The translations under genes were made by a program, and so were the position numbers. A stretch of 42,007 bases of DNA from positions 1 through 42,007 of the forward strand of contig JBOIEE010000334.1 of the NCBI GenBank assembly GCA_050740975.1, written 5' to 3'. How positions within the stretch are numbered: position 1 is the first letter of the stretch; the number at the start of each line of letters is the position of its first letter. The notes beneath the pieces are model-generated. The model ran no database searches. It worked only from the letters and a program-made list of their open reading frames with translations, and was not told the DNA's origin. The stretch comes from Gammaproteobacteria bacterium. GTDB lineage: Bacteria; Pseudomonadota; Gammaproteobacteria; JBOHHR01. Positions 3,614 to 26,700 of this stretch are shown here, one piece after another.

Positions 3614-3627
3614 GGGCTTCGGGTACG

Positions 3628-6313: not shown

Positions 6314-6378
6314 CGCTGCTAATAGTGGCTCGTTTTATGGTAGTGTTTAATGTCAGGCACTAAATTCCCGGAGCCGCC

Positions 6379-6930: not shown

Positions 6931-6932
6931 GG

Positions 6933-7839: not shown

Positions 7840-8810
7840 CGGGATCGAATATCCAGCTTGATGGGCAGGGGCATCTCAAACATTTTTTGAGTATTGAAGG
7901 GCTTCCCCGGGAACTGCTGCTCGAGATCCTAACCACCGCCGAAGGCTTTGCGCCGGTCGGGAGGAGGCCGGTTAAGAAAGTCCCGCTGCTGCGCGGCAAG
8001 ACGATTGTCAATCTCTTCTTCGAGCCCAGTACCCGCACCCGCATCACCTTCGAGCTGGCCGCGAAACGGCTCTCCGCCGATGTCTTGACGCTCAACGTCG
8101 GCGACTCGTCCACCAGCAAGGGTGAGTCGTTGCTGGATACACTGCGCAACTTGGAGGCGATGCACTGCGATATGTTCGTGATCCGCCACGAGTGCAGTGG
8201 TGCGGCGCACTTTATTGCTAGCCACGTTTGCTCTGAGGTACGGGTTATTAATGCGGGCGACGGCCGCCATGCCCATCCCACTCAAGCGATGCTGGATATG
8301 TTCACCATCGGTCGCGCGAAAGGGGATTTTGGCGCGTTGTGCGTGGCGATTGTGGGGGATATCGCGCATTCGCGGGTGGCGCGCTCCAACATGCACGCTC
8401 TTAGAACTTTGGGAGCGCGTGAGGTGCGGGTCATTGGCCCGAGGACTCTGATCCCTCCCGAGATAGAAACTCTGGGGGTGCGCGTTTATCACGATCTTAA
8501 GTCCGGATTGCAGGATGTGGATGCGATCATCATGCTGCGGCTGCAAAATGAACGCATGCAGGGGGCTCTGCTGCCCAGTGCGCGCGAATTCTTTGAGCTC
8601 TATGGGCTGACGGAGGAGCGGCTGGCGGTGGCCAAGCCGGACGCCATCGTTTTGCACCCTGGACCCATCAATCGCGGTGTAGAGATCGACTCCCAGGTCG
8701 CTAACGGCCCGCGCTCGGTGATCCTGGACCAGGTGAGCTATGGCATCGCGGTACGCATGGCGGTTATGTCCATGGTGATGAGCAGCGCGGCTAAACCGGA
8801 GCCGCGCTGA
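7836..8810 (+). CDS. pyrB: Aspartate carbamoyltransferase catalytic subunit
   Basis: [14 protein letters not shown] and HPGP motifs. Internal ATG at 7836 of track ORF 7716-8810. Confidence 0.95.
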
Positions 8811-8811
8811 G

Positions 8812-10110
8812 ATGCAGCTCTTGATCGCCAATGGCCGTGTTATCGATCCCGAAAAGGGTTTTGACGAAGTCACCGATCTCTATGTCCGTGCCGGCAAAAT
8901 CGAGAGCATAGGTAGCGCTCCCCAGGACTTCAAGCCAGAGCGTGTCATCGACGCCAGCCATCTGGTGGTAAGCCCCGGTTTTGTAGACTTGAGCGCGCGG
9001 CTGGGTGGAGGAGAGGCCGAGCATGGGGCCACCATCGTCAGCGAAACACAAGCCGCCGCTCGCGCTGGCATTACCACCTTGTGTTGTCCGCCGGATACCA
9101 CACCGGTGCTGGACATGCCAGCGGTGGCGGAGCTGATTCATCGACGCGCTCAGCAGGCAGGTTTAGCCAAGGTGCGTTGTTTAGGAGCCCTTACCCGGAG
9201 TTTGGGTGGGGAACAATTGGCCGAAATGTACGCCTTGAAGGCTATCGGTTGCGTTGGGGTGAGCAACGCTGGAAGAGCGGTGTATAACACCGAGGTACTG
9301 CGCCGCGCCCTAGAGTATGCGGGGACTTGCGGGTTGCCGGTGGTGCTACAAGCCGAGGACCATTGGTTAGGCGGTCTGGGACACATGCACGAGGGCCGCG
9401 TCAGCACCCGCCTGGGGATCCCGGGGATCCCCGAAACGGCGGAGACCGTGGCCTTGAGCCGCGATTTGCTATTGGTCGAGCAGACCGGCGTGCGCACGCA
9501 TTTCGCCCGACTTTCAACGGCCAAAGCGGTAGAGCTGCTGGCACAGGCTCAGGCCCGGGGATTGCCGGTCAGCGCCGATGTCACCATCCATCATTTGCAT
9601 CTAACCCATGACGCGGTGGGCGATTTCGATAGCATGTGCTATATACGGCCGCCGTTGCGCACAGCCGCCGACCGTAAGGCGCTGCGTGCCGCCGTCGCCC
9701 GCGGTGTCATTGCCGCCATCTGCTCGGATCACCAGCCGCATGATGTAGACGCCAAGACCGCTCCATTCGGTGCCACAGAGCCGGGAATGTCGGCTCTGGA
9801 GCTGCTGCTGCCCCTGACGCTAGAGTTGGTCCGCGGCCAGGTGTTGGATCTGTCCACGGCGATCGCCGCGATTACCTGCCGGGCCGCGCGGGTGTTGGGG
9901 ATGCAGGCAGGCACATTAGCAATCGGTGCGAGTGCCGATGTGTGTGTGTTTGATCCCGAGCGCAGATGGATTTTGACCGAAGAAAGCTTGTTGAGCGCGG
10001 GTAAGAACTCGCCGTTCCTCGGGCGCGAACTGGTGGGTAAAGTGACCCACACGCTGTTAGACGGGGAAGTGGTGTTTGACGAGGAGGCGGATGCCCCCGC
10101 TGCACGATAG
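8812..10110 (+). CDS. pyrC': Dihydroorotase-like protein, probably the non-catalytic PyrC' type
   Basis: Amidohydrolase fold (SPGFVDL.., CSDHQPH) directly after pyrB. The first metal-binding HxH motif is replaced (PGFVDLSARL where active enzymes have D.H.H.R). Confidence 0.8.
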   Translation: MQLLIANGRVIDPEKGFDEVTDLYVRAGKIESIGSAPQDFKPERVIDASHLVVSPGFVDLSARLGGGEAEHGATIVSETQAAARAGITTLCCPPDTTPVLDMPAVAELIHRRAQQAGLAKVRCLGALTRSLGGEQLAEMYALKAIGCVGVSNAGRAVYNTEVLRRALEYAGTCGLPVVLQAEDHWLGGLGHMHEGRVSTRLGIPGIPETAETVALSRDLLLVEQTGVRTHFARLSTAKAVELLAQAQARGLPVSADVTIHHLHLTHDAVGDFDSMCYIRPPLRTAADRKALRAAVARGVIAAICSDHQPHDVDAKTAPFGATEPGMSALELLLPLTLELVRGQVLDLSTAIAAITCRAARVLGMQAGTLAIGASADVCVFDPERRWILTEESLLSAGKNSPFLGRELVGKVTHTLLDGEVVFDEEADAPAAR

Positions 10111-12363: not shown

Positions 12364-13572
12364 ATGGCACGTTATACGAGGTTTGATCTACTGCATAGGC
12401 ATGATGGCGGAAGCCGCCGCACAGGGTTTCGTGCGCGAGCGTTTTCACTATTTGCGGTCCTATCTCTAGTGCTATGGGGCTGTGCCTCTGCACCGGTTGC
12501 CCCTAATGCTTCAGCGGCTGCGGCTTCCGGACTGATTGTTTCGGTGGCTTTCGCGCCCGACAGTCGCCTATGGCGGGTACGCGCCACAGCCGATCGGATT
12601 TATGTAGATTACTCAGACGATTTCGGAGTGAGCTATAGCGCGCCGATCACAGTGAATGAGACACCACAGCGGATCAGAGCGTTGCCAGAAGATCGGCCGG
12701 GGCTCGCAGCCGACAAATCGGGCCGTATCGCCGTGGTTTATTACGCCGAAGAGTCCCATGGCGTGGTTCCCTATTTCAGCTACTCACTGGATAGGGGCCA
12801 GCACTTCAGTTCACCGCGGCCTTTGACCACACCCGGATCCGAGGCCGAGCATGCGATGGTGAAGCTCGTGGCCGATGATAGGGATCGTTTCTACCTGTTC
12901 TGGTATGAGACTCGCGCACACGAGCCGGGCGCATCGCTTTACTATACGGTTAGCGACAAGCCTGAGATACTGCCTGTCCCCAACCGACGGATAACCGCTA
13001 CCCTGTGCGAATGCTGCCGGCTGGCGTTGGATTTTAATCGCGACCAACAGCCGGTACTATTGGCTCGGGTCATCTTTCCAGGAAGCGTCCGGGACCATGC
13101 GTTAATTGCACTCAACCCCGAGTCAACTCGGCGTGTGACTGACGACGACTGGTATATCGAAGCTTGTCCCAAGCACGGTCCGGCGCTCTCCATTGCTGCA
13201 GACGGTCGCTATCACATCGCCTGGTTTACCCAGGGCAAAAAACGGAAGGGCTTGTTCTACGCCTACGCGGATAACCTAGGACAGAGCTTCTCGCAACCCA
13301 AGCGTTTCGGTAACCCCAAATCCCTGCCCGAACACGCCGATGTCCTCGCGCTCGGAGATCGGGTAGTGCTCACTTGGAAGGAGTTCGATGGGCAACGGAC
13401 ACGACTCTTGGCGATGCAGTCCCGCGATCGCGGTAATACGTGGTTAGCAAGCAGTGTGATCGGAGAATCGAACAGCGGATCCGATCAGCCGGACCTCATC
13501 ACTAACGGCCAGCGTACGTTCGCGTCCTGGAGCGCTCTGGATAACGGCCATAGGCTCATTCCGATCCCGTAG
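12364..13572 (+). CDS. BNR/Asp-box repeat (sialidase-like beta-propeller) lipoprotein
   Basis: Lipobox LVLWGC. Four Asp-boxes: SDDFGVSY, SLDRGQHF, ADNLGQSF and SRDRGNTW. Confidence 0.7.
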   Translation: MARYTRFDLLHRHDGGSRRTGFRARAFSLFAVLSLVLWGCASAPVAPNASAAAASGLIVSVAFAPDSRLWRVRATADRIYVDYSDDFGVSYSAPITVNETPQRIRALPEDRPGLAADKSGRIAVVYYAEESHGVVPYFSYSLDRGQHFSSPRPLTTPGSEAEHAMVKLVADDRDRFYLFWYETRAHEPGASLYYTVSDKPEILPVPNRRITATLCECCRLALDFNRDQQPVLLARVIFPGSVRDHALIALNPESTRRVTDDDWYIEACPKHGPALSIAADGRYHIAWFTQGKKRKGLFYAYADNLGQSFSQPKRFGNPKSLPEHADVLALGDRVVLTWKEFDGQRTRLLAMQSRDRGNTWLASSVIGESNSGSDQPDLITNGQRTFASWSALDNGHRLIPIP

Positions 13573-13617
13573 GTTGAAGGAGGTGCGAATGATTTCGGGG
13601 AGCGAGGTGGGCGGAGG
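13566..13617 (+). repeat. Left 52-bp direct repeat (attL-like) of the islet
   Basis: cccgtaggttgaaggaggtgcgaatgatttcggggagcgaggtgggcggagg matches 18813-18864 at 50 of 52 positions. Contains the TAG stop of the BNR gene. Confidence 0.8.
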
Positions 13618-13639
13618 GGACATAAACTCGGTACTCGAC

Positions 13640-13808
13640 TGGTCATCCGTGGCGAGGAATTTCAGCTATGGAGACAGTAAACGTTTATCGGAAGCTACGT
13701 TGGACGCAGGGAGTGTCACATAGAATCCGACTGGCTGCTGATCTACAAGTTGGACCGGAACACATCCTCTTCGAGCGCACACGGTCGCACGCGGACTTAT
13801 TTAGAGAT
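13640..13808 (+). pseudogene. Multiply frameshifted YafQ/RelE-type toxin relic
   Basis: Frame fragments ..YVGRRECHIESDWLLIYKLD and ..PEHILFERTRSHADLF match the conserved C-terminal half of YafQ-family toxins (RECHI.PDWLLIYK...L.L.RTGSHSDLF) but sit in different frames. No partner antitoxin is present. Confidence 0.5.
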
Positions 13809-13925
13809 AACGCTGATTGAAACTAGGCCTGTGGGGTTAGATCCTATAGGTCATTTACGCGATCATATTGATTGCCTTATAGTTCAATATATGGCGTCTG
13901 GTTATATCTGCCTGTTGGATGAGAA

Positions 13926-16718
13926 ATGGCCAATACTGCAAACCCAATTACGTTCTTTCGCGGAGAGCCCTTCGAGTTGTCCCGGCCCGTGTCGAGCCGC
14001 TTTTTTGACAAGTTCGCTCAGAAATGGCGTCAACCGTTAGGAGAGGGAAGGCGGCCCCTCTTTGTGCTTGGCGCAGGAGTATCGCGCGCTGCATCTGTGC
14101 CAATGATGTCCGATATGCTTAGCCACCTAAGCAAGCTATTGGAAGAAGCGCAGCAGGACCAGACTACCGATAGTGCTCTAGGGGAAGCGCGCTTATACTC
14201 CGAACAAGCGATTGCAACGCGCGGTCGTACTGATTGTGCGCTGCTCTTTGGGGCGTTACAGGATTCGGAGAAACCAGAGGCAAGGGACGTATGGCGCACG
14301 TTCTGCCAGGACTTCATTTCTGGGGAGATTACCACTGATGCGCAACCGCCGGCGCATACCTCCCTATTCGAGGCCCAACCCACTGAGACGCACCAGTGGA
14401 TCGCAGATCTAGTAGTTACGTCTCAGGCGCAATGCATAAGTCTCAATTTCGATGGCCTCACCCGAAAAGCCATCGACAACATGCTCAGGAGCAAGAATGG
14501 ATCCGGTAAATGTGTGATCCTGGACACGGCTGAAAAGATAACGAACTTCATAGGCCGCGATCCAAGAAGCAATGAGGCAAAGCACCTGCGGTCTATAATC
14601 AAGCTGCGGGGAGACGTATTCTACGCCATCTGTGTTACGCCTGGCTGTCCTCTCTCAGAGATCCAGACTCCCGTTTATGACCTCCCGACCTCCGACCCAA
14701 AGCAGCGCCTAACGTGTCCTGAGTGCAAATGCCAGAGAAACCTCCAGATTGCGTTTCCGGGGCACCACGATAAAGAGCGGGAAAGCGAAGCGATTCTTGA
14801 CGCCGCATGGCGGTACCTAGTTCCGTCCACTTCATTGTTCATGATCATGGGCTTCAGTGGCGAATGGGATGGCAGCGTTGTCGAATTTGTTTTCTCGGCA
14901 GCACAACTGCTAAGCGTCCCAGTTATTGACGTCCGGATTAAACCGGACGAGGAGTCTTCGCATTACATTAAAGATATTTGGTGTCAGCGGTTCCCACGGG
15001 TAGAGTATCAGCCCATTTACTGCACTGCGGATGAATTCGCCACCCGCGCTGCAAACAATGTTAGTGCCAGGAATAACGCTGAGGTCATTGCAGTGGTCGG
15101 CTGCCCAGTCATAAAGCCTAAGCCCTTGCCCGCAGACCACATTTGGGACACCAGAGGGACAGACGTGCGTCCTATGATCGGTCAGATCTGCGCAGCCGAC
15201 GACTTTCGCAGTTTGGAGAACTACTCACAGTTAGGGCTTAAGACCTTCTGGTGGGGGGCGGTAGGGAGTTTCCAACTACACGACCGATATCACCACTCCA
15301 TTGGAACGATGCGAGTCGCTTCAAGATGGCATGGATGCCTCACGGATTGTGCTTTTTCGAATGACCTTTCAAGAGCAAGTGACAGAGAAAACGAATTCTT
15401 GGCTATTGCGGCATTGCTGCACGACTATGGACATCTCCCATTTTCACACTTGTTTGAAGAGATATTCGACGAGCTACATTGGACGACGGTGAATTCCTCG
15501 GGCAAACCATGGCACGAGGTCCTGACCCACAAAAAGATCCGCGAGCTGGTCGCCATGGATATCGCTGGTAAGCAAGATGCTGTTAAAATGTACACTGAAT
15601 ATCTCGGATTTACGGTCGATCAATTGCTCAGTTTGATAGATGGATGTCTTGGAAAGCCTTATCTCGACGCACTTGTTAATAGCCCCCTCGACGCAGACAA
15701 GATCGATTATGTATTTCGTGACCTCTACTTCCTTGAAATGGCGGGCAAGCTGGAACATAGAAGGCTTGGGAATAGCGTAGGAGATCCTATAGCGTGGCGA
15801 GATGATTTCTTTCGAGAACAAGAGCTATCCCCGGAGCAACTAATTCGTCTCAACGGCCGTTCTGCTTTAAGATTGCTGGAACTTCTCGAGACACGACGAA
15901 ATCTGTATTTTAAGTTTTACCTTTCTCCTGAAATGCGTGTGATGGAGCGGATTACGGCCTTCGTAATGACTAATTATCTCGCGCACGTCATATCAAGAAA
16001 GCTAGGTGATGAGATTCGAGATAGCGATCAGCCGTTCGAATACGATCACGGCGATCTGAAAGTTCGCCTCGCAACCGATAACATCCTTGGCAAGTACGAC
16101 AACGTGATGATCAACCACAGCACTAATAAGTATAAGGAGCTCCCCCTGTTGGGTGTGCTCCTGGAAGAGTTGCTGGAGGACGGGTTTCCGATTGACGATG
16201 TCCCGCGTGAGGTGCTCAAGAAACTTAAGGATACGCTGAATAGATTCCCGAAAGATCGAGACGAAGGCCCATTCGGGGTGACAGTAAGGGACGTATATAA
16301 GGATTTGCACGTTGGTGGACCGTATTATTTCGACTCGTCGCATGAAGGAAAGATTAGGGACATGGTTAGAGAACTAACCTTGCTCTATCAGGGTTCAGTG
16401 CTGTTCGATGTTGTTAAGACTCCGCGCTTCCTTGCTGGGGCAAAAACAAGAAGATATCGTCGCTTGTGGGCCAATGGAGAGGTTATCGGAGAGACGTTTC
16501 TAGTGCCGTCCATTAATCCAATGAAATGGACAGTCAAGACACGTGCCGCGGTTCCGTTAGGCGCTGTAGATTTCGGGCAACTCGAACGTCAGTACCTTCA
16601 GGTGATTGTCTTTGACCCGCTAGGTTATCCTACAAAGGCTCGTTTCGTTGACCAAGAGTTTCGGCGCAGATGCCGTGCGAGTGGCGTCGATTTTATGGAC
16701 ACAATTACGTCGAATTGA
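13926..16718 (+). CDS. Fusion protein: N-terminal sirtuin (SIR2)-like domain with Zn-ribbon, plus C-terminal SAMHD1/COG1078-type HD phosphohydrolase domain
   Basis: SIR2 motifs: GAGVS (aa 49-53), HQWIADL..ISLNFDGL (156-178), and Cys236/241/264/267. HD motifs: HDRYHHSIG (452-460), LLHDYGHLPFSH (497-508), DADKIDYVFRD (589-599). First ATG after an in-frame stop. 930 aa. Confidence 0.85.
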   Translation: MANTANPITFFRGEPFELSRPVSSRFFDKFAQKWRQPLGEGRRPLFVLGAGVSRAASVPMMSDMLSHLSKLLEEAQQDQTTDSALGEARLYSEQAIATRGRTDCALLFGALQDSEKPEARDVWRTFCQDFISGEITTDAQPPAHTSLFEAQPTETHQWIADLVVTSQAQCISLNFDGLTRKAIDNMLRSKNGSGKCVILDTAEKITNFIGRDPRSNEAKHLRSIIKLRGDVFYAICVTPGCPLSEIQTPVYDLPTSDPKQRLTCPECKCQRNLQIAFPGHHDKERESEAILDAAWRYLVPSTSLFMIMGFSGEWDGSVVEFVFSAAQLLSVPVIDVRIKPDEESSHYIKDIWCQRFPRVEYQPIYCTADEFATRAANNVSARNNAEVIAVVGCPVIKPKPLPADHIWDTRGTDVRPMIGQICAADDFRSLENYSQLGLKTFWWGAVGSFQLHDRYHHSIGTMRVASRWHGCLTDCAFSNDLSRASDRENEFLAIAALLHDYGHLPFSHLFEEIFDELHWTTVNSSGKPWHEVLTHKKIRELVAMDIAGKQDAVKMYTEYLGFTVDQLLSLIDGCLGKPYLDALVNSPLDADKIDYVFRDLYFLEMAGKLEHRRLGNSVGDPIAWRDDFFREQELSPEQLIRLNGRSALRLLELLETRRNLYFKFYLSPEMRVMERITAFVMTNYLAHVISRKLGDEIRDSDQPFEYDHGDLKVRLATDNILGKYDNVMINHSTNKYKELPLLGVLLEELLEDGFPIDDVPREVLKKLKDTLNRFPKDRDEGPFGVTVRDVYKDLHVGGPYYFDSSHEGKIRDMVRELTLLYQGSVLFDVVKTPRFLAGAKTRRYRRLWANGEVIGETFLVPSINPMKWTVKTRAAVPLGAVDFGQLERQYLQVIVFDPLGYPTKARFVDQEFRRRCRASGVDFMDTITSN

Positions 16719-16735
16719 CTAGCTCAGGAGGCGCA

Positions 16736-17842
16736 ATGGGAAACGTATCCTGGTTTACGTACGAATGTATTTTTGGATCCGTGCACCATCTGAAGGCAAT
16801 TGAATTTATTAATGAGAAGGAGAACCAAAGACTTGAGGGCTTTTACCGGGCACTTCCAAACGTCAGAGCGGAGGTATCTCCCGACGTTTCGAGCGCAATC
16901 GGCCGCTTCTTGACAACGAGTGAGATCTCCCTGGCAGATAACGAACGGCTAGAGCGGTGCTTGGCAGACCTGCTTATGAATAACATGCATCGATATCTTC
17001 GAGAAGAAGGTCCGGTTCTACTCGTGGAGGGACCCCCGCTCTCAAAACTGATTGGGCGCATTGGTTACCGGTACCCGCGCCCCGAAGTGACCATTGCGTT
17101 TGTCACAATTCGACCAGAATACCTACCCCAGCCTGGTGGGGCATCGGTGATGTCGGATGGTTGGAACGGTCCTTTCCCGGGGTTACAGGAAGATACGGTC
17201 CGAAGGACATATTTCCGATACAAACCAATTCCTATACGACTGGACATTTTCGCACAGGGATTGCAACGGTTCCGTCCGCTATGCAAAAAGGGAGGTGTCC
17301 CCATGGGCGTTACAGCAAAACTGAGGGCAATTTCTGAAGATGTCCTAAAGTTCGCGGATTATCTGAATCAGCGAGAGGCCCAAAGCCAGCCGAGATATAT
17401 TGCCGGACAACCGAAGAGGTTCACTCCTGTCGCAGACGAGGGTACGATCAATGAAAACTTAGCGGAGGCAGCGAGAGGTGGCAAGGCCGATGCTAGTAGC
17501 AAGAAGAGGGAACCTCGAACACCCAATCGGTCGACCGATCCATCAGTGGAGCGGGGAAAACGCGACCTCGTCAGGGCCCTCACCTCTGTTCCCGAGGACG
17601 CAATCCTCGATACGATCTTTGACAAAACGGACCGGCACATTAGGAAGGCTAACGGCGACCTGGTTAAGCAGTTTTTGGCAGAGAGGGGACTTGGAACAAT
17701 AGACGAAAAGCAGAACAAACAATTGTTGATATTTGTACAGAAAAGAATTATCGAGGAGCGCAAGGAGCGGCCATATAGATTGACTGTTCAGGACTTGGAA
17801 AGATGGTATGCAGAATTTAAGGGAGACGAGGGACGGAGCTAG
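16736..17842 (+). CDS. Hypothetical protein with no recognisable motif (middle gene of the operon)
   Basis: ATG at 16736 preceded by AGGAGG (16725-16730), 17 nt after the gene 1 stop. 368 aa, with a charged Lys/Arg/Glu-rich C-terminal third. Confidence 0.7.
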   Translation: MGNVSWFTYECIFGSVHHLKAIEFINEKENQRLEGFYRALPNVRAEVSPDVSSAIGRFLTTSEISLADNERLERCLADLLMNNMHRYLREEGPVLLVEGPPLSKLIGRIGYRYPRPEVTIAFVTIRPEYLPQPGGASVMSDGWNGPFPGLQEDTVRRTYFRYKPIPIRLDIFAQGLQRFRPLCKKGGVPMGVTAKLRAISEDVLKFADYLNQREAQSQPRYIAGQPKRFTPVADEGTINENLAEAARGGKADASSKKREPRTPNRSTDPSVERGKRDLVRALTSVPEDAILDTIFDKTDRHIRKANGDLVKQFLAERGLGTIDEKQNKQLLIFVQKRIIEERKERPYRLTVQDLERWYAEFKGDEGRS

Positions 17843-17844
17843 GC

Positions 17845-18732
17845 GTGCGCTATAGAAGCGAGCGAGTGCTAACCTTTTCACGCTATTGGGGTGCGCCACA
17901 CCCTGTCATCGCGATGGAGAGGGCCATCGACGCTGCTTTTCCCGACCTCGACCGAATGCAGCCACCAATCGATCTTCGGAAACTGGGAGAGCGTAGGGGT
18001 ATCAAAGTTGTCGAGCGCCCAATCGACGCTGATGGCCTTATTTTTCGGGCCGAAGATGAAGGATATGTAGTCGTCCTAAACACGCGTGCCCAAGAGGAGC
18101 GGCGGCGTTTTACCCTTGCACATGAGATTGCTCACACTTTTTTCTTTGACGCGGAAGGCTGCCGCGGCTATGAAACTACAGCGAGTCGCGGTGAAGTCAG
18201 ACGCGAGGTTGATCCAGAGGAAGAGCATTTATGCGATTATGGGGCAGCCAAGATCCTAATGCCTAAGGGATTAATCGCGCCGCTGCTCGACACATTTGGG
18301 CCAAGTGCCCATTTTGTTGTTCAGGTCGCGAGAACGTTCAAGGTGTCAATGCGGGCTAGTGCGCGGCATCTGGTTAAGATTAGCGATACAAAGATTGTAG
18401 TGGGATATTGGGAATATCGAGCCTCGCGTGGGCAGTTCGAGACATCGTGGGTAGAGGGGCGAGAGACCGCCAAAGGCAGAAGGGCGATGGCAGTGGGAAA
18501 AGACCAGCCAATATTCGACGACTTCCTAGCAGCGCAGGATTTTCGTGGTAGGAGATGGATGTCTTTGGGAGGGGACCTACAGCATTATTTTGTGGATGCA
18601 GTGTTCCTGAAGGGTACGCCGCGACGATGGCTTACTGAGATTGTGCTTGATCCCATCGCCGAGAGGGGGTTTGTGGGGCGATCGACGCGGATAGCAGGTT
18701 TAAGTGGCGAGGTTCCTGGCCACCTGCGTTAG
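17845..18732 (+). CDS. ImmA/IrrE-family (COG2856, peptidase M78-like) zinc metalloprotease
   Basis: HEIAH (aa 93-97, nt 18121-18135) followed by EEEHLCDYGAAKILMP, the family's third-ligand / FA..LLMP-like motif. GTG start 2 nt after the gene 2 stop (alternative ATG at 17914). I see no HTH domain. Confidence 0.8.
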   Translation: MRYRSERVLTFSRYWGAPHPVIAMERAIDAAFPDLDRMQPPIDLRKLGERRGIKVVERPIDADGLIFRAEDEGYVVVLNTRAQEERRRFTLAHEIAHTFFFDAEGCRGYETTASRGEVRREVDPEEEHLCDYGAAKILMPKGLIAPLLDTFGPSAHFVVQVARTFKVSMRASARHLVKISDTKIVVGYWEYRASRGQFETSWVEGRETAKGRRAMAVGKDQPIFDDFLAAQDFRGRRWMSLGGDLQHYFVDAVFLKGTPRRWLTEIVLDPIAERGFVGRSTRIAGLSGEVPGHLR

Positions 18733-18812
18733 CGCTCCCGCGGCGCTACAGTAAATGTCTGCCGTGTAACTACGGCGACCAAAGGTTCGGGCTTTCGCAT
18801 CGCGGCGAGCAC

Positions 18813-18864
18813 CCCGTAGGTTGGAGGAGGTGCGAATGATTTCGGGGGGCGAGGTGGGCGGAGG
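18813..18864 (+). repeat. Right 52-bp direct repeat (attR-like) of the islet
   Basis: cccgtaggttggaggaggtgcgaatgatttcggggggcgaggtgggcggagg. Flanking sequence on both sides is unrelated to that around the left copy. Confidence 0.8.
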
Positions 18865-18931
18865 AGCCGGTAGCCGCCCCCGGCCGAAGTTTGCGCTGTT
18901 TGGAAGTAAAGAGAGCGCGTCCGCCGGGCCC

Positions 18932-19057
18932 TCACGTTTTCACGGTTGTCACACGGCACGCCACAATTCCAAAGAGAACAATCGCGCCGCCAAGCGACTG
19001 CTGTACGCTAAAAGGTTCAGCCAACAGCACCCAGGCAAACACTGCGGCTGCGGCCGG
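18932..19057 (-). pseudogene. C-terminal relic of a DMT/EamA-family transporter
   Basis: Minus-strand 42 codons, PAAAAVFAWVLLAEPFSVQQSLGGAIVLFGIVACRVTTVKT*, match the last TM helix pattern of EamA transporters (..LGE..S..Q..GG..I..G). Preceded by an in-frame stop, with no gene body. Confidence 0.45.
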
Positions 19058-19101
19058 CTAGCGTCTTAGCTGATCAAGCGACTCTATGGCGCAGGGGTAA
19101 A

Positions 19102-20580
19102 TCAGGCCCGCTGTCCGCCGCCGTTCCAAGCTAGCAGATTCAAGAACTCGCGGCGCGTCTTCGGGCCATGGGTGCGGAAGTGGGGGTCCGGTGCCTCGCG
19201 ATAAGCCAACCGCTCCTGGGCGATACCATCGCGCGCCGCGCGTTTTTTCATCTCATCGGCGCTGATAGGATAGGGCCGCAGTGCGTTCAGCCCGAATACC
19301 TTGGCACGCAGCTCGGGCGTGATCTCAAGGTAGCCGTGTTGCTCGCGAAGCTCGTTGGCGATTTGAAAGGTCCGGAAGGCCTGGATCTGGTCTTGCGGCG
19401 AGCCATACCAGATGGAATCGGTGCCCCACAACACGTTGTCCTGCCCGACATAGTTAAAGAGCTTGCCGAGCGCATGCGCCGCACTCTGCGGGTCGCGCAT
19501 CAAATAGCGCCAGGTACTACCGAGCTCCGCATACACGTTGCTGTTCGGCGGCAGGTCATTCTCGACGACGGTCTTGATTAACGAATCGATGCCTTCGTTG
19601 CGTGCGGGGTCGTAAGGCCCTTCGGCCTGGCCGGGCACGAATCCGGGGTGGTAGATAAGAAAGTTGACATCCGGGTAGCGCCTGGCGACGACACCGATGT
19701 CGTCGCACAGTGAATGCGCATAGGATTTCCGGCCGAAGGGAATACCCTTGTGTACGCAGATGTTCTTGATGCTGAGCTTGCGCGCCCGCTCGATGAAGGC
19801 CAGCCCCACCTCGTCACTCAGAAAAAAGCCCCGCCCCTCCGGGCCCCATTGGGTGTAGGTCTTCCAGGCAGACACCTTCCAGCGCTCGGCCAATTCGTCC
19901 ATGCCTTGCAGATCGCCGTCCTGATTCGGGTTCACGCGCCCGTGCAGGAGTAGCCTATGTGCGCCGCCCATCCTCTCCACGATCCGGGCCGTGGCTGCCG
20001 CTTCTTCGATGGCGAGAGGCTCGGCGTCGCGATGTGAGGGCACGAAGGACAGCACCATCATGTCCGTGTCGGAATCCAGAAAGACGTCTTTGATGAACTC
20101 CTCCTCGCCCAGGCACAGCAGGTAGCTGTGCTCACCCGGCCTATCGGCCAAGTGGCAACTTGCCTTGGGCGCCCACTTGAACCGTCCGCTGCCGGGCGGC
20201 TCATTTTTCAGCCATGCGCCCCTGGGATTCACGTAATGGCCCTGCACGTCGAAAATGAACTCGCTACCTTCAAGCGCTGCGGCCGCGACCTCCCGATCGA
20301 GGGCGGCTTCCTTGGCGACATCAAAGAACCCACCGCCACGCCCCGCGGCTGCATAGGCCGCGTTCATTGCGAGCAAGGTGGACGCCGCTCCACCGGCCGA
20401 GATCAAAAAATTCCGGCGCCCAACGCCGCAACGCTTGGCGTTCCCCGTGGCGGCCTCATGAGCCAGGCGCCGCGCCTGCCGGTGCACCGACTCAAGCGGT
20501 ATGGGGGCGAATTCGCCGTTGGTCGTGGTATCCAACTTGATGGGCAGGCGGCGCCCTTCGGGATCGTGTGGCTGAGTCAT
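19102..20580 (-). CDS. Amidohydrolase-family (metal-dependent TIM-barrel hydrolase) protein with Tat-type signal motif
   Basis: GRRNFLISAGGAASTLLAMNAAYAA twin-arginine motif at aa 54-78 of the track ORF. The body resembles Amidohydro_2-type hydrolases. The true start may be the internal GTG (VHRQARR..). Confidence 0.7.
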   Translation of the reverse strand: MTQPHDPEGRRLPIKLDTTTNGEFAPIPLESVHRQARRLAHEAATGNAKRCGVGRRNFLISAGGAASTLLAMNAAYAAAGRGGGFFDVAKEAALDREVAAAALEGSEFIFDVQGHYVNPRGAWLKNEPPGSGRFKWAPKASCHLADRPGEHSYLLCLGEEEFIKDVFLDSDTDMMVLSFVPSHRDAEPLAIEEAAATARIVERMGGAHRLLLHGRVNPNQDGDLQGMDELAERWKVSAWKTYTQWGPEGRGFFLSDEVGLAFIERARKLSIKNICVHKGIPFGRKSYAHSLCDDIGVVARRYPDVNFLIYHPGFVPGQAEGPYDPARNEGIDSLIKTVVENDLPPNSNVYAELGSTWRYLMRDPQSAAHALGKLFNYVGQDNVLWGTDSIWYGSPQDQIQAFRTFQIANELREQHGYLEITPELRAKVFGLNALRPYPISADEMKKRAARDGIAQERLAYREAPDPHFRTHGPKTRREFLNLLAWNGGGQRA

Positions 20581-20707
20581 TTCGTTCTTCCCAGCGGGGT
20601 GTGTGGCCTAATTCCGAATTCTACGGCAATGTACCCATTAACGGCAGTTTTATGAATCCTCGACCACCAGTAAAGCACTAATAAGCATCTCGGAAAGGAG
20701 CTGTGTC

Positions 20708-21309
20708 ATGCAAGAAATCGCGAGCGACATCTTCACCTGGTCTTGGTTTTCCGAGCCCCACGGCTACGATTTCAACGGCCACTTCATTCGCCACTCGGAG
20801 GGTAACCTTTGCATCGACCCGGTTCAGCCCAGCGAAGAAGACCTGGAGACGATCACGCGGCTAGGGGTCGCGCAGATCCTGCTCACCAACCGCAACCACA
20901 CGCGTGCGGCCAAGTTGGTGCGGCTGCGCACTGGGGCAAAAGCGGCCATCCACCCGGATGACGCGCACCACGCCCGTAGCCAGGGGGCCGAGATCGATGA
21001 GGCGTTGCGGGTTGGCGAACAAATAGGTCCGCTCGAGGTGATCGGCGTCCCGGGGAAGTCGCCGGGTGAGGTCGCATTCTACTGGCGGGCGCGTCGGGTC
21101 CTGATCGTGGGAGATGCGGTGATCGGCAATCCGCTCGGACGCTGCGGACTGCTCCGGGAGCAGGTCATGGGGATCCGGTGCGTTTGAGGCAAAGCGTGCG
21201 TAACTTGCTGGATCTGGACTTCGACACGCTGCTTGTGGGAGACGGCGTATCCATTCTCCAGGGGGCGAAGGACGGGCTTAGGGCGCTGGTGGATAGGTTT
21301 CCGGATTGA
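20708..21309 (+). pseudogene. MBL-fold metallo-hydrolase, frameshifted near its 3' end (or a sequencing indel)
   Basis: ORF 20708-21187 stops early. The conserved tail GDPVRLRQSVRNLLDLDFDTLLVGDGVSILQGAKDGLRALVDRFPD* continues in the -1 frame from the GGGG run at 21169-21172 to 21309. The 602-nt span is not a multiple of 3. Confidence 0.7.
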
Positions 21310-21476
21310 TGGCGGCGCCGTGGCTGGAAACTGGAACTCTCCCTTTCTCGACCGCACCGGTTGGGAAAAGAGCGTCAAGAAGATGGTCCATGTGATGGGC
21401 GCCCCCATACCCGAGCAGGATCTCACCAAGAAATTTCGCTTCGTAACGCCTTGTTTCGGCTCGTACCACATCGGTT

Positions 21477-21504
21477 TTGCGGACCAGGGGGCTACGGATA
21501 TAAT
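21477..21504 (+). promoter_or_regulatory. Candidate sigma70 promoter of the second antitoxin gene (possibly a leaderless transcript)
   Basis: TTGCGG (21477-21482), a 16-nt spacer, then consensus TATAAT (21499-21504). The ATG at 21512 is only 7 nt downstream and no SD is present. Confidence 0.4.
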
Positions 21505-21511
21505 TTAACTC

Positions 21512-21742
21512 ATGGGTGCTACCTTTGAAGAACTGGAAAAGCAAGCCCGAGCGTTGAGCCCGAAAGAGAAAGCTGCCCTTGCACGCATTCTCATTGATGA
21601 GCTAGATACCTCGGTCGACCCGGACGCCGAAGAGCTGTGGATTGAAGAAGCTCAGCGGCGGTATGACGCCTTTATAAGGGGCGAGCTTCAGGACCTCCCC
21701 GGTGACGAGGTAATGCGTAGGGTTCGTAGCCGCCTCAAATGA
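21512..21742 (+). CDS. Type II antitoxin, same TIGR02574-like family as 1129-1362
   Basis: LS.KEKA.LA..LI.ELD.....D.E.LW.EEAQRRY......G aligns with the 1129-1362 product. ATGA overlap with the truncated toxin. Confidence 0.8.
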   Translation: MGATFEELEKQARALSPKEKAALARILIDELDTSVDPDAEELWIEEAQRRYDAFIRGELQDLPGDEVMRRVRSRLK

Positions 21743-21802
21743 TCGGCTATCGGTATCTTCCTCCGGCGGAGGAAGAAATGACCGAAGCATCCCTCTGGGG
21801 GA
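21739..21802 (+). pseudogene. 5' stub of a ParE/RelE toxin gene
   Basis: YRYLPPAEEEMTEASLW resembles AELHPEAEKEFIEASLFY of the intact toxin. Homology ends at ~21802, where unrelated duplicated sequence begins. Confidence 0.5.
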
Positions 21803-21897
21803 TTTTTGACTGTGGAAGACGGGATCGATGGAATCGAACGATGGACAATGGAGAAGCCCCTTGGATGTCTCCGAAGGAATGCGACAATTTCGGTACC
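21803..21897 (+). repeat. Diverged duplicate of the 5' region of the decarboxylase gene (copy of 41665-41757)
   Basis: tttttgactgtgg..gggatcgatggaatcgaa..ggatgtctcc..ggtacc is shared with 41665-41757. The minus-frame translations of both contain CPSFDSIDP. Confidence 0.6.
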
Positions 21898-22146
21898 TCA
21901 ACACGGACTTCGCTAAATTTTGTTTCACGTTTGCTCGGTGAATTATTTACATCACAATCCCACTTAACCTTGATACACTAGCGACGTTTAGGTGGATCAA
22001 TGATTCCTTAGAAAAAACGCATTATTTCCTCCCCCCTCATGGGCTCCAAAGCGACTTTATTAAATTCTTTTCAGACCTCCTAGGCGTGGGAGGGATTTAA
22101 GGGGGAGGGAGCATTCTAGAAGCATAATTTCGTGGAGGTCTAAAAA

Positions 22147-23628
22147 ATGCCCCAGAAGAAAAGTCTCATTCTAATCCTATTGACCGGCTCTTTGGCTTTG
22201 TTGATGGCGGGTTGTCCACAGCCACCAGGACCCCCGGAAATAAAGATCACCACGTCCTCGCCGTTGCCGCAGGGCAAGGTGGGGGAACGCTATAAAGCCC
22301 GATTTATGGCGACCGGTGGACAGGCGCCGTATACGTGGTCAGGCGGTCCCCCGGCAGGTTTAGGCTTAAGCCTGAAGGCCGATGGTAAACTAACGGGGAC
22401 ACCCACAAAGGCGGGTAGCTTTAAGTTTGACGTCAAGGTGACCGACTACGCGAATCGGTCTGTCACGAAGAACTTCCAGCTCAAAGTCAAGGTCGTCGAT
22501 GGCCGTTGTGCGATCACGACCACCTCTTCGTTGCCCAACGGGACGGTAGGGCAGACTTATGGGCCGGTCACCCTGCAGGCGAGTAGTGGTTGCAAACCTC
22601 CGCTGACCTGGTCGGTGGGCGCGGGGGCACTGCCTCCGGGCTTAACGCTGAACGCCCAAAGCGGTGTCATCGGTGGAACGCCCACTCAGGCGGGCACCTT
22701 CAACTTTACCATCAAGGTGACCGACAGCACCGGACAATCTGACACTAATGGCTTGCAGATCACAATTACCACAAACGGCCCGGAGTGTGAGATCGCGACC
22801 TCCTTGCTGCCGAACGGGACGGTGAACCAGTCTTATCCGGCGGTAACGCTGCAGACGAGGAATTGCACGCCACCGCTGACCTGGTCGGTGAGCGCAGGGG
22901 CCCTGCCTCCGGGCTTAAGGTTGAACGCCCAAGCCGGGGTTATCGACGGGACCCCAAGTCAGGCGGACACCTTCAACTTTGCCGTCAGGGTGAGCAGCGC
23001 AGGCCAGTTGGACACCCAAGACCTCCAGATCACGATAGGGCCGCCGGTCGCGGTTTGTGAGATCACGACCACCTCACCCTTGCCTGACGGGAGGGTAAAC
23101 CAGCCTTACCCGCCGCAAACCTTGCGCACGACGGGTTGCACGGCGCCGCTGACCTGGTCGGTGAGTGCGGGGGCACTGCCTCCGGGCTTAAACCTGAACG
23201 CACAAACGGGTGTCATCGGCGGCACAGCCACTGGGGACGGCACCTTCAACTTTACCGTTAGGGTGACCGACAGCGCGAGTCCGGCCCAGTCCGACACCGA
23301 AGGCTTTCGGATTGTGATCGAAGGTCGGGTATGTGGAACCCATACGGTAAGTATGAATAATCTTCAATTTATACCGCGCACATTGACCGTAAGGGCTTGT
23401 GAGACAGTGAATTGGGTGCATAATCAACCGGGTGTTCCCCATACTGTGACAAGTGATACCGGCGTATTCGAAAATGGAACAGTGGCTAATCCTATGGTGT
23501 TCCAGCAAACCTTCTCTCATACCTTTGCTAACCCTGGGACATTCCCCTATCACTGTAGGATCCATGGGGCGCCAGGTGGAAATCCAGCCCTAATGACCGG
23601 AAGTATCACGGTAAATCCTAATCCGTAG
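22147..23628 (+). CDS. Lipoprotein with four Ig-like (He_PIG/cadherin-like) repeats and a C-terminal type-1 copper cupredoxin domain
   Basis: Signal and lipobox LALLMAGC. Repeats carry LP.G.V.Q.Y....L...G...PLTWS...GALPPGL.LN...G.I.GTP...GTFNF...VTDS. C-terminal HTVTSD...YHCRIHG...........M gives the His/Cys/His/Met ligand set. Confidence 0.8.
   Translation: MPQKKSLILILLTGSLALLMAGCPQPPGPPEIKITTSSPLPQGKVGERYKARFMATGGQAPYTWSGGPPAGLGLSLKADGKLTGTPTKAGSFKFDVKVTDYANRSVTKNFQLKVKVVDGRCAITTTSSLPNGTVGQTYGPVTLQASSGCKPPLTWSVGAGALPPGLTLNAQSGVIGGTPTQAGTFNFTIKVTDSTGQSDTNGLQITITTNGPECEIATSLLPNGTVNQSYPAVTLQTRNCTPPLTWSVSAGALPPGLRLNAQAGVIDGTPSQADTFNFAVRVSSAGQLDTQDLQITIGPPVAVCEITTTSPLPDGRVNQPYPPQTLRTTGCTAPLTWSVSAGALPPGLNLNAQTGVIGGTATGDGTFNFTVRVTDSASPAQSDTEGFRIVIEGRVCGTHTVSMNNLQFIPRTLTVRACETVNWVHNQPGVPHTVTSDTGVFENGTVANPMVFQQTFSHTFANPGTFPYHCRIHGAPGGNPALMTGSITVNPNP
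22492..23328 (+). repeat. Three tandem ~93-codon intragenic repeats, conserved at the DNA level
   Basis: The core ccgctgacctggtcggtg occurs at 22600, 22873 and 23146 (spacing 273 and 273 nt), each followed by the near-identical g.gc.gggg.c.ctgcctccgggcttaa. Confidence 0.8.
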
Positions 23629-23797
23629 AAAACGGTGTAGCGGTTATCCAGGGTCCACTTGCAGGGTGAAGGTCTTATGATCCCTATGCGGTGGACCCTG
23701 GAACGCCGGCCCAGTTAGAACGGGAAGAGAAGAGGCACCAGTGCCCCTGACACTAAAAGAGGGTTTGCCTGTGCATCTTGCAAAGAGGAGGGAAATA

Positions 23798-26700
23798 ATG
23801 GAGAGAGGGTCATCTAGAGAACGCAATCGCGGCATCGGCATGGGTCTAAACTTTATCGTTGCCGCTTTTGTTGTCTGGAATACCGGAGGTCAGGCAGGCG
23901 TTCCACCTGATGTCGCGGGGGTGAGATCTACTGCCTCCTCGCAGGCCACCGCCCCCGCGGATCCCTGCAGAGACGAAAATAGACATGATTGGCGCCACTA
24001 CCACGTCTCTGCCATCGATGTAAAGATGGTATTAAACCGCTTCGGTGACCGTGATGACGATGCCTTCATGTACGTACTCGATGAAAAAAGAAAGAAGATT
24101 GAAGACTGGCAAAACCAGCCCGGCTGCACGAGCTGGAATAAACCCGGTGAACACAAGTCCTGCGTCACGACGGGTTTGCGCGACGACCTGGTCCAGCCCC
24201 TGGTTCTGCGTGCGAACCTGGGGCAGTGCCTGGTCATCCATTTCACCAATCGTTTGGAGGTGGATAAGTTCCTCGATCCGAATAAAACCCTGGATCGGAC
24301 CTCGGGGCGTAAGTGGCCCGTCGATCGTGTTGATCGCAAGCCTGACGGCCAGCCGATCAGCAAGGCCGCGCTCCAGATCAGCGGGTTGATATACTCGGTA
24401 GAAAAAGACGGTAAACCGGTCACCCGTGCTATCGATACATTTGCCGCCGAGAACGAAACGATCCTCTATAAGGTCCCGCTACCAAGCGACCCGGCTGCGG
24501 AGCGAGCCTACTATTTTCACGATGGAGGAGGCAACCGCCAGCGGGTGCCTCATGGTTTATTCGGTGTCATCGCGGCCGAACCGGCAGGATCCAAATACCT
24601 GGATCCGAAAACTGGTTATCTCTCAGACGGTACCGGTTGGGAGGCAATCATCGACGTTCTTCCAAAGCAGCGCGATTTCCGCGAGTTTGTTATCATCTAC
24701 CACGAGGTCGGTGATGAAAACTACGACAGGATCGTTGATGGAACGAAATATCCAGGGCCGCAAAACCCAGACGATATCTTCTTACCGCAGCTTACCCCCA
24801 GTAGCTTTGCTCCGCTGGAACAAACTTACCGGCCGGCGGGGAGGGCGCTCAACTACCGCAGTGAACCCTTCCTCCACCGGCTGGCCATCAACGGTGATCC
24901 AAATAACAGCGATCTCACGGTATCTCCGTTCGCCCAAAAAAAGGCCCTGGCTTATAGCTCCTACACCTTCGGCGATCCGGCCACCCCGATCCCGCGTTCT
25001 TATCTCGGAGAGCCCACCAAGACCCGCCTGGTGCACGGCGGCAGCGAGGTGTTTCACGTGCATCATCTGCACGGGGGTGGCGACCGCTGGCGACGAAACC
25101 CTAGATCTGATCCCAACAACGACATCAGCTCGGGCTTGAATAAGCGCCCGCTGCAGAATGTCTTTTCCACCCATCTCGATTCCCAAACCATAGGCCCAGG
25201 CACCAGCTATAACCTCGAGCACGAATGCGGTGCCGGGGGCTGCCAGCGGGCCGCTGGCGATTTTCTTTACCACTGCCACATTGGACACCACTACATCGGC
25301 GGCATGTGGGGGCTGTGGCGCGTCTTTGATACCTGGCAGCACGATCTGGCAAAACTCCCCGATATGCCCGATCCACCGAAGGCCGTGGATTCCACTCAAT
25401 TGATCGGCAAGACCTTTGAGGGAAAAACCGTGGTGCTCAAAGCCGATCCCAACGATCCGGATCAGATCAGCTTAAAAAAATGGGTTGAAGAGCAATTACC
25501 ACCCCCGGGCATACCGATTGATAATGAGGATGCTACCGTCTGGTTTTGGAGTGTAGAGGATCGAAAGGGTCTACCCCTTTATTTGGGGGAACCGGAGATC
25601 ACTCAAGAAGAAAAGTGGGCGAATTATGAGTCCCCTCACCCGGGGGAGCGCCTCCCCATCCGCTTTAATCCCATCAACGGCCGTTACGCTTGGCCGTTGT
25701 TCCGGCCCCATCTAGGCCAGCGGCCTCCCTTCGCGCCCAACGGACACTCCGGCGCACCTTGGCTGGGCGAGCAGGGTTCGGAGGAGCGCCGGGACGGGCT
25801 CTGCCCCGATCCGAAAGTGTGGGGTATTCCACACCAAAGGATTCGCCATTACCCAATTTCCGCGGTCCCTGTAGATATTCCCCGGATGGACATTCCCGAT
25901 AACGAGGTAGGGAATATCGATAGAGATGGGAAGATATTTGTCTTGAACGAAGACATACGCGGCGAAACGCACGAAGGAAAGGTTCTTTTGCCTAAGTCAA
26001 AAAACATAGAGCCTCTGGTCGTCCGCTCCAATGTAGGCGACTGTGTGCGGATCATTTTTTCCAATAGATTGAAGGACACCTTCGATGCTGTCAGTGCAAA
26101 GTTGACCACCTTGTCGAAGGTCAACATGCACACCCATTTTGTCCAGTTCGACCCGCAAGCCTCTGATGGAGTGATTACCGGGTTCTCCTATGAACAGTCG
26201 GTGCGCCCGTATAGCACTGAGACACCGCCAGGGGCGAAACAAGGACGCCGACTCGTGGCTAATACCGCGCCCGGAGCGCAAGCGATCATTGTCGATCAGG
26301 CACATAGGTTGAGGACGAATGGTCAGGCAAGGAAAGGCGTGTGGATCGGAATCGGCCTCGGGGAAGGGGTGTTGGACACACGTAACTCCTGCTGCGCTCC
26401 AAAGCCGGGTGGCCTGGTCCCGCGTACCGAGATCCGCCGTATTGAGGACATTGCTGCCTTGAATGATGGCACCTTCAAAATAATACTGGATCGACCGCTC
26501 GACTTGCCCCACGAAGCGGGTGAGGCCGTCGGTGTGGAATTCGTGCAGTATCTCTGGTATTCGGACGTTGATACGGGCACGGTGTTCTGGCACGATCACG
26601 TGGATTTTAAATCCTGGGGCCACGGGCTTGCTTCCGCCCATGTGATCGAACCGGGATCGTCTACCTGGCACGACCCTAAGACAGGTAAACCCGTTCGCAG

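Follow-up and report, generated by a model that had tools for sequence, protein, structure and literature searches.

Organization of the operon

The 42,007-nucleotide (nt) contig JBOIEE010000334.1 of a gammaproteobacterial assembly (GCA_050740975.1), which is called the window at its full length, carries an operon of three genes, termed gene 1, gene 2 and gene 3. Gene 1 encodes a SIR2-like domain fused to a SAMHD1-type HD domain, gene 2 encodes a protein with a C-terminal helical module (C-module), and gene 3 encodes an M78 metallopeptidase. An earlier note, made from the letters of the window, had proposed the trio as an undescribed abortive-infection or replication-starvation system whose effector is licensed by proteolysis. 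The analysis indicates that the operon almost certainly represents a conserved system with SIR2-fold, SAMHD1-type HD, M78 and gene 2 domains. The C-module and its dedicated protease form a portable pair, which is found with other proteins as well.

The features of the operon are shown in Table 1. The three genes are co-directional, with gaps of 17 nt between gene 1 and gene 2 and 2 nt between gene 2 and gene 3. These open reading frames (ORFs), the gaps and the AGGAGG ribosome-binding site were found exactly as the earlier note had given them, and the motifs that it had quoted (GAGVS, NFD, the four Cys, HDRYHHSIG, HD, DADKIDYVFRD and HEIAH) all lie at the residues to which it had assigned them. 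In the public gene calls for the contig, gene 1 (P0001) starts from M64 and comprises 867 residues without the GAGVS loop, and gene 2 (P0034) consists of the C-terminal 179 residues only. The longer starts of both genes used here are backed by the alignments of homologues. A still longer ORF of gene 2, with 390 residues from position 16670, overlaps gene 1.

The operon is located in an islet of 5.2 kb, where the GC content between the two bounding direct repeats is 0.516 (51.6%) compared with 0.59 and 0.58 in the flanks, so that the lower-GC, repeat-bounded islet described before was borne out. The repeat copies are identical at 50 of 52 positions and occur exactly twice in the window, where the number expected by chance is 0. 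Within the repeat lie the stop codon of the gene upstream (12364-13572), a GGAGG ribosome-binding site and the opening nine codons of a small ORF. After the right copy this ORF is intact, with 78 residues, and after the left copy it continues as a diverged remnant of 44 residues (13590-13723). Since the repeat carries the first codons of the ORF and the intact copy follows the right repeat, the islet has the appearance of a 5.2-kb segment inserted at the start of the small ORF, and the repeat resembles a target duplication. No integrase or transposase is encoded in the islet. No tRNA gene was found in the window and no RNA family in an Rfam scan of 13300-19300; therefore, neither a tRNA-linked integration site nor a riboswitch leader is supported. 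The promoter-like site upstream of gene 1 overlaps a short inverted repeat (13859-13875); sites of this kind are no more frequent in the region than expected by chance.

Table 1. Coordinates of the operon, its domains and the boundaries of the islet in the window.
Feature	Position	Strand	Description
Left copy, 52-nt direct repeat	13566..13617	+	Islet boundary
Promoter-like site TTTACG-18-TATAGT	13854..13883	+	43 nt upstream of gene 1; consensus match only
Gene 1	13926..16718	+	930 residues; SIR2-like / SAMHD1-type HD fusion; putative effector
Gene 1, SIR2-fold domain	13926..15074	+	Residues 1-383
Gene 1, HD catalytic core	15162..15773	+	Residues 413-616
Gene 1, C-terminal region	15774..16715	+	Residues 617-930; conserved within the family; no separate domain call
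Ribosome-binding site AGGAGG of gene 2	16724..16729	+	6 nt 5' of the ATG
Gene 2	16736..17842	+	368 residues from ATG 16736
Gene 2, N-domain	16736..17383	+	Residues 1-216; predicted RNase H-like (EndoV/PIWI-like) fold
Gene 2, disordered linker	17384..17590	+	Residues 217-285; predicted local distance difference test (pLDDT) <30
Ala-Ala-Arg in the linker	17468..17476	+	Residues 245-247; candidate M78 cleavage or docking site
Gene 2, helical C-module	17591..17839	+	Residues 286-368; portable; all-helical, ~85 residues
Gene 3	17845..18732	+	295 residues; GTG start; IrrE/CapP-type M78 metallopeptidase
Right copy, 52-nt direct repeat	18813..18864	+	Leads into small ORF 18837-19069

Domains of gene 1

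The HD domain of gene 1 passes the Pfam HD model with 28.4 bits against a cutoff of 22. As determined by comparison with the PDB, residues 413-616 align with the deoxynucleoside triphosphate (dNTP) triphosphohydrolases 9mr6, EF1143 (2o6i) and SAMHD1 with E-values of 8e-10 to 2e-6, and the alignments run through the HxRxxHSxG, LLHDxGHxPFSH and DxDKxDYxxRD motifs. The corresponding motifs of gene 1 are HDRYHHSIG at residues 452-460, HD at 499-500 and DADKIDYVFRD at 589-599. The conservation of residues was evaluated in 20 full-length or near-full-length homologues of gene 1, and R454, H457, H499, D500, H503, H508, H530, D589, D591, K592, Y595 and D599 are invariant in 20/20. Among these residues, H457, H499, D500 and D591 make up the H...HD...D metal site, and R454, H503, H508, H530, K592, Y595 and D599 make up the substrate and catalytic set of the SAMHD1 type, where we take the residues of gene 1 to be equivalent to the SAMHD1 residue numbers. 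Judged by these residues, the HD domain is a SAMHD1/EF1143-type dNTPase domain with an intact catalytic set, in line with the SAMHD1-type signatures claimed at first reading. Two proteins of about 900 residues, P0014 and P0015, are fusions of a Ser/Thr kinase with HD_assoc_2 and are weak relatives of the HD region of gene 1.

The assignment of the N-terminal domain was settled by structure after the sequence hidden Markov models (HMMs) had fallen short. No match of gene 1 to SIR2 or SIR2_2 was obtained in Pfam; the NCBIfam deacylase model gave 12.7 bits against a cutoff of 221, and the PADLOC SIR2 models gave E-values of ~5e-3 and ~13 bits, both of which are sub-threshold. The profile of residues 1-383 matches solely sirtuins in the PDB, weakly. 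The AlphaFold2 model of the domain has a pLDDT of 84 and a predicted template modelling (TM) score of 0.85, and the Foldseek search with this model gave 40 PDB matches at E ≤ 1e-3, all of which are SIR2 proteins. The leading matches are the SIR2 proteins of SIR2/HerA, the SIR2-APAZ of SPARSA, SIRT2, ThsA and DSR2, with E-values of 6e-8 to 1e-3. The sirtuin-type domain of the earlier note is therefore upheld as a fold, whereas the corresponding sequence HMM calls are not.

The domain contains GAGVS at residues 49-53, NFD at 174-176 and a four-Cys Zn ribbon at 236, 241, 264 and 267, and GAGVS and N174/D176 align with the GAGIS and QNID motifs of sirtuins. N174/D176, the GAGVS loop residues and the four Cys of the Zn ribbon are invariant in 20/20 homologues. 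In the hhalign comparison with Sir2Tm, whose sequence was checked against 1yc5_A, the catalytic H116 ('VIELHGNV') faces R228 of gene 1 ('IIKLRGDV'). At this position, Arg is found in 15 of the homologues, Asn in 4 and Trp in 1, and His is never found. According to the PDB entry names, the inactive forms of related defence NAD-hydrolysing enzymes (NADases) are His mutants, KomC H146N and DSR2 H171A. Because the position of the catalytic His is occupied by Arg, Asn or Trp, canonical NADase activity of the domain appears unlikely, and the NAD-depleting effector that had been put forward is no longer the default reading. The residues of the NAD pocket (G49, G51, S53, N174, D176, G229 and D230) do not vary among the 20 homologues, and the conservation of the pocket implies that it may still bind a ligand. 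The SIR2 domain is most likely a ligand-binding or assembly platform, which in relatives would be the part that docks HerA.

Domains of gene 2 and gene 3

Gene 2 has no match in Pfam, NCBIfam, PADLOC or the PDB sequence profiles and had been regarded as an orphan in which no motif could be placed. This description was corrected by the AlphaFold model, which has a mean pLDDT of 65 and shows well-predicted domains with the disordered linker between them. In the Foldseek search, the N-domain matches EndoV (3ga2) with an E-value of 9e-5 and a probability of 1.0, and the PIWI domains of SPARDA and TtAgo (Thermus Argonaute) with E-values of 1e-4 to 2e-3, where the TM-scores over the matches are low, from 0.2 to 0.39. 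In the BFVD library of viral folds, only weak matches to RNaseH and RuvC were obtained, none of which is significant. By eye, no conserved acidic residue is seen in the first strands in the alignment of the gene 2 family. The modelled structure indicates that the N-domain probably adopts an RNase H-like fold.

Gene 3 was borne out as the ImmA/IrrE-type protease that it had been taken for. Gene 3 scores 58.5 bits (E-value 7.4e-16; cutoff 22) with Pfam Peptidase_M78 (PF06114). Among the PADLOC models, CapP fits best (E-value 5.8e-23), and the nearest solved structures are IrrE orthologues (E-values 3.5e-15 and 2e-12). Gene 3 also matches several RmrA models of PADLOC with E-values of 2e-9 to 1e-3, where only the peptidase half is covered, and the spr1629 repressor/antitoxin family of NCBIfam weakly. 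The HEIAH motif is located at residues 93-97 (nt 18121-18135), and E126/E127 form the region of the third ligand. In 11 aligned gene 3-type proteases, H93, E94, H97, E126 and E127 are invariant. The C-terminal domain of gene 3 (residues 174-295) is also conserved, with invariant aromatic residues, W189, W202, W238 and others, in the 11 proteases. No helix-turn-helix (HTH) was found in gene 2 or gene 3 with Pfam, and no small HTH ORF is conserved in the leader, the trailer or the related loci. On these matches and residues, gene 3 is classed as an HTH-less IrrE/CapP-type M78 peptidase.

Distribution of the family and its third gene

The gene 1 family is very rare: about 13 homologues were found in a set of 5.8 billion proteins. 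Distant full-length relatives were added by a scan of representative genomes; they are from metagenome-assembled genomes of Lachnospiraceae, Oscillospiraceae, Bacillota, Bacteroidetes, Desulfobacterales, Thermotogaceae and an archaeon. No full-length relatives of genes 1 and 2 were found among 72,556 plasmid records, and none of gene 1 among 50,697 phage records; in both sets, only generic HD matches were obtained. A set of HD-only proteins (L028-L034), most of ~440 residues and one of 914 residues, was rejected, as their similarity to gene 1 is confined to the HD region and they are encoded without gene 2.

In every locus that extends far enough, a homologue of gene 2 is located directly downstream of gene 1, and gene 1 and gene 2 are the invariant core of the family. 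The third gene varies. The complete trio with M78 is found in 8 loci, which are the window, L001, L002, L007, L008, L012, L013 and L014 and contain 7 distinct gene 2 proteins; such recurrence goes well beyond chance. The third gene of L011 encodes a divergent M78 peptidase. In most other relatives, at nine loci (L005, L015, L018 and L022-L027), the third gene encodes a defence-type HerA ATPase, as identified by PADLOC HerA with an E-value of 3e-34. In the midpoint-rooted neighbour-joining tree of gene 1, the M78-linked proteins form one clade, and the HerA-linked proteins form three other lineages. Thus, the linkage of gene 1 to its two partners, which the earlier note had proposed to check, applies to gene 2 in every locus of sufficient length but not to gene 3, which is specific to a clade.

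Pairing of the C-module with the M78 protease

In the alignment of gene 2 from 20 loci, all 8 loci linked to M78 have the linker and the C-module, and none of the 12 others does. The C-module also occurs apart from gene 2. When 1.84 billion representative proteins were searched exhaustively with a profile, about 35 proteins matched in the C-module alone, which is always C-terminal; a narrower C-module alignment used in a metagenome scan gave 4 loci, and a word-indexed search with the C-module profile 5 proteins. The C-module is found on HD/HD_assoc_2 dNTPase-like proteins (P0066, P0051 and P0108), which are HD dNTPases of 570-880 residues, and P0108 matches the PADLOC dGTPase model with an E-value of 8.7e-10. 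At least three other families have the linker and the C-module with no Pfam or PADLOC match; these are represented by P0060/P0070/P0073/P0047, P0067/P0080/P0055/P0059 and P0057/P0063. The loci L036-L039 belong with these further families, and the P0060-like genes are followed by an M78 gene of the gene 3 type. These families are candidates for new effectors under the control of the same protease.

The adjacent protease was found in all five readable loci of C-module-only proteins (L035-L039), where the next gene encodes a gene 3-type M78 protein of 294-296 residues and overlaps the stop codon by 4 nt, in translational coupling; L035 is the locus of the HD protein P0066. These M78 proteins match the gene 3 profile with E-values of ~1e-90 and are 34-35% identical to gene 3. 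Overall, M78 is adjacent in 13/13 loci with the module and in 0/12 loci without it (Fisher p = 2e-7, uncorrected for phylogeny). The idea that the effector is licensed by proteolysis has thereby gained strong comparative support, from these counts and from the occurrence of the pair with unrelated effectors. In nearly all C-module proteins examined, an Ala-Ala-(Arg/Lys/Gln) sequence is located ~105-125 residues from the C-terminus, within a stretch that does not otherwise align; in P0064, Arg-Ala-Arg occupies the position of Ala-Ala-Arg. The Ala-Ala pair is invariant in the alignment of the module, even though the linker around it is disordered.

Proposed mechanism and alternative explanations

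We interpret the operon as an abortive-infection or replication-starvation defence operon in which the depletion of dNTPs is licensed by the protease, and the probability of this whole chain is estimated to be about 0.5. In this mechanism, the products of genes 1 and 2 would form a complex that is kept inactive by the C-module. The peptidase would be activated by a cue of the infection, for which the analogy to CapP and IrrE suggests single-stranded DNA or damaged DNA, and it would then dock on the C-module and cut the linker at or near Ala-Ala-Arg. The freed complex would then hydrolyse dNTPs via the intact HD site, and phage DNA synthesis would be starved. Because the same protease is paired with HD-C-module proteins that stand alone and have no SIR2 domain, the HD domain would be the activity that is regulated. 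Taken separately, a defence function of the operon is probable; it is also rather likely, to a lesser degree, that the C-module is the substrate of the protease, and dNTP depletion is given slightly better than even odds as the output of the system.

Several points weigh against this interpretation. The counts of co-occurrence include related loci and represent approximately three independent architectures. The choice of Ala-Ala-Arg as the cleavage site is a guess from its conservation, and cleavage may activate or inactivate the complex. In Pfam and PDB profile searches, the C-module gave neither an HTH nor any other family; it may bind DNA, and control would then more likely be transcriptional than post-translational. 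The invariant residues of the NAD pocket may leave room for non-canonical NADase activity. The immediate flanks of the islet are metabolic genes and not a rich defence island. In favour of a defence role, toxin–antitoxin or defence-type genes are found in L012 and next to HerA-type loci, and the islet of the window is low in GC, repeat-bounded and 2.8 kb from an antitoxin gene. In L012, the neighbours include VapBC, Fic, Phd and MazE-PIN modules and a Cas6 fragment.

If the C-module were a DNA-binding or dimerising autorepressor that acts on the promoter of the operon and is cleaved by M78 after DNA damage, the operon would be switched transcriptionally, as in CapH/CapP or DdrO/IrrE, and control would bear on the amount of the enzymes instead of their activity. 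CapP and IrrE cleave repressors, and they are the best PADLOC match and the PDB matches of gene 3, respectively; the small all-helical C-module and the promoter-like site over the inverted repeat upstream of gene 1 are also consistent with such a switch. We consider it unlikely, however, because the C-module has no HTH or known family in the searches described above and gene 2 has no PADLOC match, because the C-terminal position of the module on large enzymes such as the HD dNTPases would be odd for an autorepressor, and because the promoter-like match is not above chance. A little less likely again is a toxin–antitoxin logic as in RosmerTA/COG2856, where the protease would protect the cell by continuously cleaving or neutralising a toxic complex of gene 1 and gene 2, and the toxicity would be freed once a phage stops host expression or inhibits the protease. 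This logic would fit the RmrA matches of gene 3, its weak spr1629 match, the TA-rich surroundings of L012 and the presence of an antitoxin gene 2.8 kb from the islet of the window. The RmrA matches, however, span only profile positions ~146-281 of 363 and gene 3 lacks an HTH, the position of gene 3 is taken in the sister systems by HerA, which is an ATPase motor rather than an antitoxin, and the conserved C-terminal domain of gene 3 with W189, W202 and W238 suggests the sensing of a signal, as in IrrE and CapP.

The other alternatives concern the output of the system. The SIR2 domain could be the main effector if it acted as a non-canonical NADase via another base, such as the invariant D230 in 'RGD', and depleted NAD+ in the manner of SIR2-HerA, DSR or Thoeris, with the HD domain as an accessory or with dual depletion of NAD+ and dNTPs, along the lines of the earlier note. 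The invariance of the seven pocket residues indicates that the pocket is under selection, and the nearest structures are defence NADases. This explanation is nevertheless improbable, to about the same degree as the transcriptional switch, as His is absent from the catalytic position in all homologues, the mutation of this His yields the inactive PDB forms of KomC and DSR2, the SIR2 HMMs are below threshold, and HD-C-module proteins that lack SIR2 pair with the same protease. The operon might also have no role in defence and be a niche regulator of the nucleotide pool or of a stress response on a small mobile islet. The metabolic flanks in the window are in line with this, and SAMHD1-like enzymes also have housekeeping roles. 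However, the family is extremely rare and patchy across distant phyla, the islet is low in GC and repeat-bounded, and the relatives are accompanied by defence-type HerA and by toxin–antitoxin or defence-type neighbour genes; a role outside defence is therefore the least likely of these explanations.

Protease-licensed dNTP depletion, which we prefer to these alternatives, can be extended to a more general proposal, which is tentative and has somewhat less than an even chance of being correct. The Ala-Ala-Arg linker, the C-module and M78 may constitute a portable proteolytic switch that licenses diverse effectors at the protein level and is interchangeable with a HerA motor, and the His-less SIR2 domain may be a sensor of an NAD-type ligand that gates the dNTPase. 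The effectors under such a switch would be the SIR2-HD/RNase-H-fold complexes, the stand-alone SAMHD1-like dNTPases and at least two further enzyme families.

Relation to known systems

The trio is not assigned to any named system in PADLOC-DB v2, in keeping with the earlier note, which had placed it in no named system. It is not without relatives, however, since the HerA genes in nine relatives indicate that the system derives from the SIR2-HerA kind. The SIR2 fold of gene 1 matches the SIR2 of SIR2-HerA (Gao_Her_SIR) best (8wld_K, E-value 6e-8; also 8sub and 8uae), and the nine gene 1 relatives are encoded with the defence-type HerA described above. In contrast to SIR2-HerA, no HerA is encoded in the islet of the window, SIR2 and SAMHD1-type HD domains are joined in gene 1, the catalytic His is missing from the SIR2 domain, which reaches only ~13 bits with the PADLOC SIR2 models, and the gene 2 protein with its predicted RNase H fold is always added in the gene 1 family.

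Gene 3 is of the same M78 kind as the proteases of CapH/CapP, IrrE/DdrO and ImmA/ImmR (CapP 5.8e-23; IrrE 3.5e-15), and it shares with them the HExxH with a downstream Glu, the extra C-terminal domain and the location next to its presumed substrate. Unlike these systems, the operon in the window has no XRE-type HTH repressor, and the presumed substrate is the C-module on an effector-associated protein or an HD enzyme. Such a substrate implies that the control would be a direct post-translational licensing and not a transcriptional derepression. Neither the window nor the related loci that were inspected contain a CapH repressor with a CD-NTase operon of the CBASS type.

Gene 1 resembles the defence dGTPases and animal SAMHD1 in that the HD domain keeps all metal and substrate residues. 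However, it matches the PADLOC dGTPase model with an E-value of only 0.0087 and 13.4 bits over ~50 profile positions, and the Dgt model TIGR01353 with 15 bits against a cutoff of 152. In addition, the Dgt-type enzyme is encoded by a single gene, whereas gene 1 is a fusion of 930 residues in a multi-gene system with a protease or HerA. The likeness to RosmerTA (RmrT/RmrA) is limited to the peptidase domain of gene 3, which matches RmrA models with E-values down to 2e-9; only the peptidase part is aligned, there is no HTH, and genes 1 and 2 match no Rmr model. Similarities to SPARSA and short prokaryotic Argonautes are seen in the fold of the gene 1 SIR2 domain (SPARSA SIR2 8jkz_A, TMq 0.53) and in the PIWI matches of the gene 2 N-domain to SPARDA and TtAgo (E-values 1e-4 to 2e-3, TM-scores 0.2-0.39). 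Membership in SPARSA was rejected, with no MID or APAZ domain, no sequence similarity and a gene 2 protein of only 368 residues.

The system thus resembles a hybrid of SIR2-HerA, dNTP depletion of the SAMHD1/dGTPase type and proteolytic signalling of the CapP/IrrE type, and it has the full set of defining features of none of the named systems. The switch consisting of the protease and the portable module is the part that is most likely new, and this form of control is apparently undescribed in PADLOC-DB v2 (2023) and the annotated collections.

If the proposed mechanism is correct, a bacterial SAMHD1-like effector of dNTP depletion would be placed in a new multi-gene setting, and HerA motors and M78 proteases would be swappable as the controlling partner of one effector core. 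IrrE/CapP-type proteases would have a portable substrate module with a candidate cleavage motif, and their action would extend from transcriptional derepression to the direct activation of enzymes, a new way of switching on bacterial immunity. The C-module together with M78 would also serve as a sequence handle for finding further effectors.

Neighbouring genes

In three of the HerA-type loci, a gene for an ABC-type ATPase of 617-650 residues with a fused methyltransferase domain (L022 5935-7788, L026 6068-7942 and L027 4578-6530) precedes the SIR2-HD gene by 20-47 nt on the same strand. The ATPase is of the AAA_15/AAA_21 type and is PtuA/GajA/AriA-like, and it may be a fourth component of the system or an adjacent defence gene. 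Downstream of the HerA-type system in L022, a SMEK-domain protein (PF21941) is encoded at 13565-15166, which matches the PADLOC model Aga_REase-PNTD with an E-value of 7e-35. The HerA-type system in L005 is located inside a cluster for cell-surface polysaccharide (1-9788 and 15020-22712) with GT87, acyltransferases, GtrA and DegT; such clusters are typically variable, phage-receptor-related regions. In L007, a gene resembling dCMP/cytidine deaminase (6223-6666) is found ~1.4 kb downstream of the M78-type trio and may encode another nucleotide-pool enzyme in the neighbourhood.

In the window, a gene for an antitoxin of the Unstab_antitox family (PF09720) is located at 21512-21742, downstream of the islet. 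It is overlapped by an ORF of 80 residues (21739-21981) that has no Pfam match, and the two probably form a toxin–antitoxin pair. Farther downstream, the region of 22147-28474 encodes two large secreted-type proteins that are unrelated to the operon: one of 493 residues with He_PIG Ig repeats and a plastocyanin-like copper-binding domain, and the other of 1577 residues with a weak match to multicopper oxidases.

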